Below are positions 53,839 through 53,892 of a stretch of 64,000 nt of DNA, one piece after another. The translations under genes and the position numbers were made by a program. The number at the start of each line of letters is the position of its first letter. Position 1 is the first letter of the stretch. The stretch lies in the UHGV virus genome UHGV-0042229; one strand, given 5' to 3'. Source of the stretch: a virus. The notes beneath the pieces were generated by a model. It was not told the DNA's origin. It ran no database searches and saw only the letters and a program-made list of their open reading frames with translations.

Positions 53839-53861
53839 TCACAAATGACAACTCGTAGAAT
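53839..53861 (+). promoter_or_regulatory. Late-promoter-like motif upstream of the tail/baseplate operon
   Basis: tcacaaatgac-aactcg-TAGAAT; -10 is 32 nt upstream of the ATG at 53893 and overlaps one arm of a 12-bp inverted repeat. Confidence 0.5.
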
Positions 53862-53892
53862 CTGTTAACAAACTAGATTCTACGAGGTTTCA

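Follow-up and report, generated by a model that had tools for sequence, protein, structure and literature searches.

Background

The closest described systems are those of T4 genes e, soc, 49 and I-TevI and of Aeh1 mobE, in which a hairpin in long early or middle transcripts sequesters the ribosome-binding site, and in which the late promoter lies within the 5' strand of that same hairpin (PMC3014915). Repression of gene e in the long transcripts amounts to about 100-fold (PMC3014915). For the phage P1, late control has been described as C1 acting on lpa, plus activation by Lpa (PMC10695390).

The DNA analysed here, hereafter the window, is a stretch of 64,000 nucleotides from a P1/P7-like phage-plasmid (Punavirus), and over 1.2 kb around the site of interest it is 98-99.8% identical to P7, SJ46, RCS47 and several P1 isolates. 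A loxP site (ATAACTTCGTATA-ATGTATGC-TATACGAAGTTAT) is found at 950-985, which means that the window follows the P1 map in reverse, from the lox/cre end as far as the tail-fibre promoter LPs (62103). At 53852-53886, a perfect 12-bp inverted repeat overlaps LPsit, the late promoter in front of the head-tail joining gene pmgC. We lean, with somewhat more confidence than doubt, towards reading this repeat as a device of the T4 gene e type, a hairpin that would silence translation of pmgC from read-through RNA.

The likeness to T4 gene e lies in the design. The LPsit hairpin includes the Shine-Dalgarno sequence of the late gene, the promoter sequence is the 5' arm, the predicted late start falls inside the structure, and any longer pmgC transcripts derived from upstream are predicted to be translationally silent. 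As in the gene e group at large, a local stem closes a short loop, and relatives keep the arrangement. The differences lie in the setting. T4 employs gp55/gp33 and TATAAATA, whereas LPsit is a promoter of the sigma-70 plus Lpa activator class, with -22 and -10 boxes; and the carrier is a temperate phage-plasmid, in which any upstream RNA is likely to originate in cassettes that are accessory or expressed in lysogeny, and not in an early lytic programme. Unlike the single genes of T4, the gene that the LPsit hairpin would guard is the first of a long tail operon. Repression has been measured for gene e, whereas control at LPsit is predicted here from sequence and folding.

The LPsit late promoter

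The site aligns base for base with the annotated late promoter LPsit of P1 (AF234172) and P7 (AF503408), which in those records precedes pmgC/tubA, tub/tubB, pmgB/tubC and sit. (One preprint gives the name LPsit to the R-S-U tail-fibre promoter, which the P1 record annotates as LPs.) The -22 region, or Lpa box, AAATGACAA at 53843-53851 on the + strand, is aligned to the "-22 region of LPsit" annotated in both phages, and the -10 box TAGAAT at 53856-53861 on the same strand to their annotated minus_10_signal, giving the layout AAATGACAA-CTCG-TAGAAT over 53843-53861. In the first half of P1, all six late promoters that are annotated follow the common pattern AAGTNACTT-N4-TAnnnT, and the gap of 4 nt between the two boxes in the window is the one seen in all six of the P1 late promoters extracted; LPsit shares its -22 box, 4-nt spacer and TAnnnT with LPs, LPdar, LPlyz, LPmat and LPpro. 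Against the AAGTNACTT consensus its -22 box matches at five of the eight specified positions in the window and at six of the eight in P1. What the first-pass annotation had called a late-promoter-like site is, judged by its sequence, a P1-type late promoter orthologous to the annotated LPsit of P1 and P7.

The sigma-70 holoenzyme initiates 6-9 nt past the -10 box, and this usual spacing predicts an LPsit start at about 53868 (53867-53870); as a promoter of this type, LPsit would depend on Lpa and on SspA of the host. A literature search returned no start-site, RNA-seq, transcript or translation data for the LPsit locus of P1. Roadblocks set by dCas12a (CRISPRi) in simA, simB and simC do not reduce the plating of P1, and pmgC and the genes downstream of it score as essential (PMC10695390); the lytic promoter of the operon therefore lies downstream of simC, where LPsit sits.

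The ATG at 53893, given in the first-pass annotation as that of the first gene, does open an ORF of 188 aa. This is pmgC (tubA in P7; 53893-54459, + strand), the first gene of the LPsit late operon, and it is followed on the same strand by tub (54470-55081) and pmgB (55096-55977). PmgC is essential, virion-associated and involved in head-tail joining (PMC9024508). In one P1-type locus from E. coli (L268, 1391-1560, GCA_900449145.1), a 1-nt deletion early in pmgC turns CAATTACTC into CAATACTC and the protein is called from an internal TTG; the promoter and the hairpin are intact there.

Two further features of the promoter region were considered. A divergent or antisense late promoter, read from the mirrored TAGAAT on the - strand, was rejected: the 9-mers that lie 4 nt upstream on that strand, CATTGAAAC in the window and CATGGCAAC in the second clade described below, agree with AAGTNACTT at no more than three of eight positions and are not conserved when compared by eye. 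The segment CTGTCACAAATGACAA at 53836-53851 resembles a LexA box (CTGT-N8-ACAA, one mismatch to CTGT-N8-ACAG) and includes a 5-bp inverted repeat, TGTCA...TGACA, that overlaps the -22 box. Its CTGT is found in P7-type and yfjT-type contexts and is missing from the sim context of P1, and the likeness is probably due to chance.

Anatomy of the inverted repeat

Both the sequence itself and a repeat search confirmed that the repeat is perfect over 12 bp with an 11-nt spacer, as had been noted at first pass. Its left (5') arm, CTCGTAGAATCT at 53852-53863 on the + strand, is made up of the CTCG spacer of the promoter, the -10 box and a further 2 nt, so that the whole of TAGAAT lies inside the arm. 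The right (3') arm, AGATTCTACGAG at 53875-53886, takes in the GAG that opens the Shine-Dalgarno sequence GAGG at 53883-53886, from which the ATG stands 6 nt further on. Between the arms, the loop (53864-53874, + strand) holds the predicted LPsit start and differs in sequence among relatives. Read along the window, the order is ACAAATGACAA - CTCG - TAGAAT - CT - gttaacaaact - AGATTCTACGAGG - tttca - ATG. The repeat search lengthens the arms to 18 nt (53846-53863 and 53875-53892, 89% complementarity); the outer pairs so gained, 53846-53851 with 53887-53892, are not conserved, and the extended arms were rejected as a conserved unit because the outer three pairs are absent from the second clade.

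Four inverted repeats in the 64-kb window are perfect over 12 bp or more and have a loop of 3-20 nt, against a chance expectation of 0.07 per window (mean of 100 Markov-1 resamples). The other three are loxP (950-985), parS (42803-42831) and an iteron-like site (39439-39465). The last of these, GACTACAGTCAA/TTGACTGTAGTC, is a perfect 12-bp repeat within a replicon-iteron-like cluster of (C/T)A(T/C)AGTCAAC repeats at 39380-39520, just upstream of an ORF of 269 aa (39548-40357); the repeats of this cluster presumably do not match the RepA iteron of P1. The 13-bp inverted repeat CAAGGTGAAATCG/CGATTTCACCTTG, in the interval 42782-42831, we take to be the parS centromere of P1, and about 65 nt downstream of it, at 42896-42914, there is a perfect late-promoter motif, AAGTGACTT-tcaa-TAAAAT.

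The placement of the left arm decides which RNA can fold. Because this arm is the -10 box together with its spacer, it is not transcribed from LPsit, wherever the exact start; the LPsit transcript includes the right arm only, at about +8 to +19, and with the left arm missing from late RNA the stem can form only in RNA begun upstream. The first-pass annotation had put the repeat within the first ~25 nt of the transcript, which cannot be so, the left arm lying upstream of any possible LPsit start. Its related suggestion, a leader stem-loop affecting translation of the first gene, has to be divided. An RNA stem-loop predicted to act on pmgC translation stands, because the right arm has the Shine-Dalgarno GAG and the arms co-vary; its assignment to the leader of the LPsit transcript is rejected, since the left arm is promoter sequence and the late leader is without significant structure.

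Folding and access to the ribosome-binding site

Read-through RNA from 53843 to 53897 is predicted to fold at -20.8 kcal/mol (z = -6.4), a value that none of 200 shuffles equalled. The predicted late leader, 53868-53935, folds at -7.6 kcal/mol (z = -0.3), with a centroid that is fully open. We expressed the consequence for translation as the cost of opening the interval from -13 to +3 around the ATG, giving the read-through form 80 nt of upstream RNA. For the ribosome-binding site of pmgC this cost is 16.0 kcal/mol in read-through RNA versus 6.7 kcal/mol in late RNA, the latter being insensitive to a shift of the start by ±2 nt.

Among the late promoters examined, the contrast belongs to this one. 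Read-through minus late, the difference is 8.8-13.9 kcal/mol in P1, P7 and five loci of the Salmonella/Klebsiella/Enterobacter type, 0.0-0.4 kcal/mol at LPmat, LPpro, LPlyz and LPs, 4.4 kcal/mol at LPdar, and 1.3-4.8 kcal/mol at five other late-promoter candidates in the window; in some upstream contexts of pmgC, alternative pairings cut the predicted contrast to 2-5 kcal/mol. Of these promoters, only LPsit has a spacer and -10 box that can pair with the region of the Shine-Dalgarno sequence downstream; LPdar is a weaker analogue. The window has 44 ORFs of 100 aa or more that are led by a Shine-Dalgarno sequence; with 120 nt of context their median opening cost was 6.8 kcal/mol, and pmgC, at 15.5 kcal/mol, had the second highest.

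Several other sites came to light in these scans. The top opening cost, 17.4 kcal/mol, is due to a perfect 10-bp inverted repeat, CATGTCGCCA/TGGCGACATG, at 34413-34436, which lies inside a minus-strand ORF of 1013 aa; the cost was scored for a + strand ORF that is probably spurious. A late-promoter candidate at 21706-21724, AAATGACTA-gcgg-TAGAAT, has the same -22 and -10 boxes as the LPsit of P1; it is without a hairpin masking the ribosome-binding site, and its opening difference is 2.0 kcal/mol. At LPdar/lydA of P1 (L003, AF234172, 31183-31230, minus strand), which reads TACCAT-tacCTCCTgacaacgtAGGAGGgaactt-GTG, an anti-Shine-Dalgarno/Shine-Dalgarno inverted repeat, CCTCCT...AGGAGG, straddles the predicted start, and the LPsit-hairpin design may recur there in a weaker form.

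Upstream cassettes and possible read-through

If the stem can form only in RNA begun upstream, the genes upstream of LPsit matter. In the window these are, on the + strand, an ORF for an upf50.5-like lipoprotein (52748-53269; annotated Upf50.5 in P7), a possible source of read-through RNA whose product has only weak Pfam TraT and glycine-zipper matches under the curated cut-off, and an upf50.0-like DUF5384 gene (53273-53812; annotated in P7; PF17358, E = 3e-43). The stop codon of upf50.0 is 80 nt from the pmgC ATG, and the hairpin lies 40 nt past that stop. A consensus scan gave no convincing sigma-70 promoter for these upstream genes, upf50.5 included.

The upstream genes are co-directional with pmgC in every context seen. 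At least five unrelated cassettes are joined to one and the same promoter module, the junction falling at the ACAAATGAC of the -22 box; in P1-like plasmids it is sharp (53841 in the window and the equivalent positions in L004-L083), and the cassettes that meet there include sim, upf50.5/upf50.0, a yfjT-like gene and a 394-aa SH3_3-like ORF. Terminator scans found no + strand terminator-like site in 53000-53900 of the window. None is present in the yfjT-type contexts either, nor would one fit there, since only 57-59 nt separate the upstream stop codon from the pmgC ATG. Two contexts, that of sim in P1 and the "ACCGGTAAC" one, keep the full stem even though a terminator-like hairpin lies some 100 nt ahead of the promoter. 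A clean anticorrelation between upstream terminator and hairpin was accordingly discarded: it is partial only, these two contexts having both, and the terminator finder used across contexts missed some obvious terminators.

A stem in this position might instead serve the upstream accessory mRNA, by stabilising its 3' end, by offering RNase III a processing site or by terminating it weakly, in which case masking of the ribosome-binding site would be incidental. Like an intrinsic terminator, the stem-loop is stable (-20.8 kcal/mol) and stands between two co-directional transcription units, shortly past the upstream stop codon, and no other terminator-like site follows upf50.0. As an intrinsic terminator proper it was rejected, because there is no U-tract, the stem being followed by GUUUCAAUG in the window and by GUUGCC or GUUGGC in the second clade, and because the scan finds no + strand terminator-like site at 53840-53900. 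The mosaic junctions also speak against a device of the upstream genes: homology starts from the -22 box, and the hairpin stays with the pmgC promoter module whichever cassette precedes it, while the sim cassette of P1 brings a terminator-like hairpin of its own. We regard this reading as unlikely, although a role in the upstream mRNA could coexist with control of pmgC translation.

Conservation and covariation

We drew pmgC loci from IMG/VR, GTDB genomes, metagenomes and single-protein look-ups, which gave 54 distinct variants of the 60 nt upstream; homologue look-ups with P0013, P0010 and P0017 yielded no further hairpin variants. A search of Rfam 15 returned no family above its gathering threshold, the hits to mir-10 (20.3 vs 47.5 bits) and CRISPR-DR16 (15 vs 35) being spurious. 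The segment matches 514 plasmid records, and six plasmid records lie at 60-90% identity to it. Among close P1 relatives the arms (CTCGTAGAATC / GATTCTACGAG in the P1 type) have an invariant 11-bp core and loop positions vary; the invariance extends over hundreds of relatives that are themselves 95-100% identical.

A second clade, with 74-78% PmgC identity, is represented in Salmonella, Klebsiella aerogenes, Enterobacter and metagenomes. Its version of the site is ACAAATGACAA CTCG TAAAAT CGG, an 8-nt loop, and CCG ATTTTA CGAGG, and the arms of this Salmonella/Klebsiella/Enterobacter type are CTCGTAAAATCGG / CCGATTTTACGAG. The G of the -10 box has become A and, at the paired position, the C of the right arm has become T, while added G:C pairs bring the stem to 13 bp. 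One member has ATTTTG in place of ATTTTA, which makes a U·G on the + strand. Pair counting on 16 distinct sequences gave two double changes, GC to AU at pair 18:40 and UA to GC at pair 23:35, the latter position being G·A in most P1-type sequences, and one-sided changes at two pairs, both of them wobble-compatible (U·G and G·U on the + strand). Paired cells make up 90.8%, as against 29-48% with slid partner columns, and none of 500 shuffles matched the observed covariation score. Independent events are very few, essentially one two-clade split and a few single variants, and the covariation is therefore supportive, not conclusive. Conservation in P1-like phages, which the first-pass annotation had named as one way to check the repeat, is seen in the core arms that they keep and in the compensatory changes of the second clade.

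Farther out the structure fades. In relatives at 64-68% identity a strong intrinsic terminator stands before the promoter and a residual 7-bp pairing is left, which in Pantoea-type loci (CTTAGAA/TTCTGAG, one U·G) has an opening difference of 1.6-2.5 kcal/mol; a relation of this pairing to the hairpin is suggestive only and could be chance. At 44-61% identity pmgC is usually found 1-4 nt behind another gene, with no promoter between. These operon-internal loci have no comparable structure, with the exception of L094 (difference 10.1 kcal/mol), and in most of them the opening cost is 3-7 kcal/mol. From this distribution, the strong hairpin accompanies an LPsit-type promoter that stands directly behind foreign co-directional genes.

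The same comparisons bear on a palindromic operator, in which a dimeric phage or host protein, bound to the duplex from -16 to +19, would repress or tune LPsit. A perfect 12-bp dyad over the -10 box and start site is the classic operator position, matched changes in both half-sites are expected of a symmetric operator as well, and the centre-to-centre distance of the 11-bp cores is 24 in one clade and 23 in the other, a shift of just 1 bp, so that the spacing is compatible with an operator. The details of the changes fit less well: the one-sided T·G and G·T differences (+ strand) keep RNA pairing and break DNA symmetry. Nor does an operator explain why the right half-site should coincide with a Shine-Dalgarno sequence, or why operon-internal copies of pmgC should lack the structure and loci with a terminator before the promoter retain no more than the weak 7-bp pairing. 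The repeat is absent from the other late promoters examined, and the half-site is not enriched in the 64 kb (11 matches with up to two mismatches vs 13.6 expected), for which reason a recurring operator half-site was rejected. Nor is any candidate regulator known, late control in P1 being ascribed to C1 on lpa and to Lpa; C1 operators are annotated elsewhere in P7, for example Op(c4). The protein-binding palindrome offered at first pass hence finds no support in half-site recurrence, in the other Lpa promoters or in the G·U changes, and we consider it distinctly unlikely.

It is very unlikely that the repeat has no function and is chance complementarity carried in a young, recombining promoter module, a reading that would suit the 95-100% identity of most carriers and the scarcity of independent events but that sits badly with a chance expectation of 0.07 per window, with two double compensatory changes between clades of 74-78% PmgC identity, with a stem that is kept while the loop varies, and with a position that ties a -10 box to a Shine-Dalgarno sequence, both of them functional elements.

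A model for LPsit and its implications

The translational reading, a gene e-type hairpin acting on pmgC, can be put as a sequence of steps. The inverted repeat would be a discriminator of transcript origin built into the Lpa-dependent LPsit. RNA coming from accessory genes on the same strand, which are upf50.5/upf50.0 in the window and simABC or yfjT-like genes in relatives, would have both arms and would fold into a hairpin of 12-13 bp once the right arm emerges, burying the Shine-Dalgarno sequence, so that PmgC would not be made outside the late phase. When Lpa activates LPsit, transcription would start in the loop, the 5' arm would be missing from the RNA, and the ribosome-binding site would be open. 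In read-through RNA the untranslated 5' part of pmgC may further expose the operon to Rho-dependent polarity, which would silence tub, pmgB and sit too. C outnumbers G over the first 78 nt of pmgC (C/G = 1.64); as a sign of Rho-utilisation-like composition this is weak and not decisive.

More tentatively, and with rather less than even confidence, we suggest that LPsit and its hairpin form a portable insulator module. It would also be the first transcript-origin switch of the T4 gene e type to be described in a temperate phage-plasmid and at a sigma-70 promoter that depends on an activator. The insulator reading is put forward because the promoter brings its own anti-Shine-Dalgarno arm. Any co-directional cassette could then be tolerated upstream of the tail operon, with or without a terminator, and leaky synthesis of virion protein would be avoided in the lysogen. 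The literature that we searched, which did not cover the P1 genome paper (Lobocka 2004), gives no description of the LPsit hairpin for P1; the class of mechanism has been known for decades.

P1 is a workhorse phage. If the model is true, its engineering is affected in two ways: inserts placed upstream of LPsit would not drive PmgC synthesis, and edits to the CTCG spacer or to the -10 box would shift translational control as well. A regulatory device of T4 would be extended to a temperate phage with a different class of promoter. P1-like phage-plasmids commonly carry resistance and accessory genes, and the hairpin would explain how variable cargo can lie directly beside an essential late operon without mis-expression.
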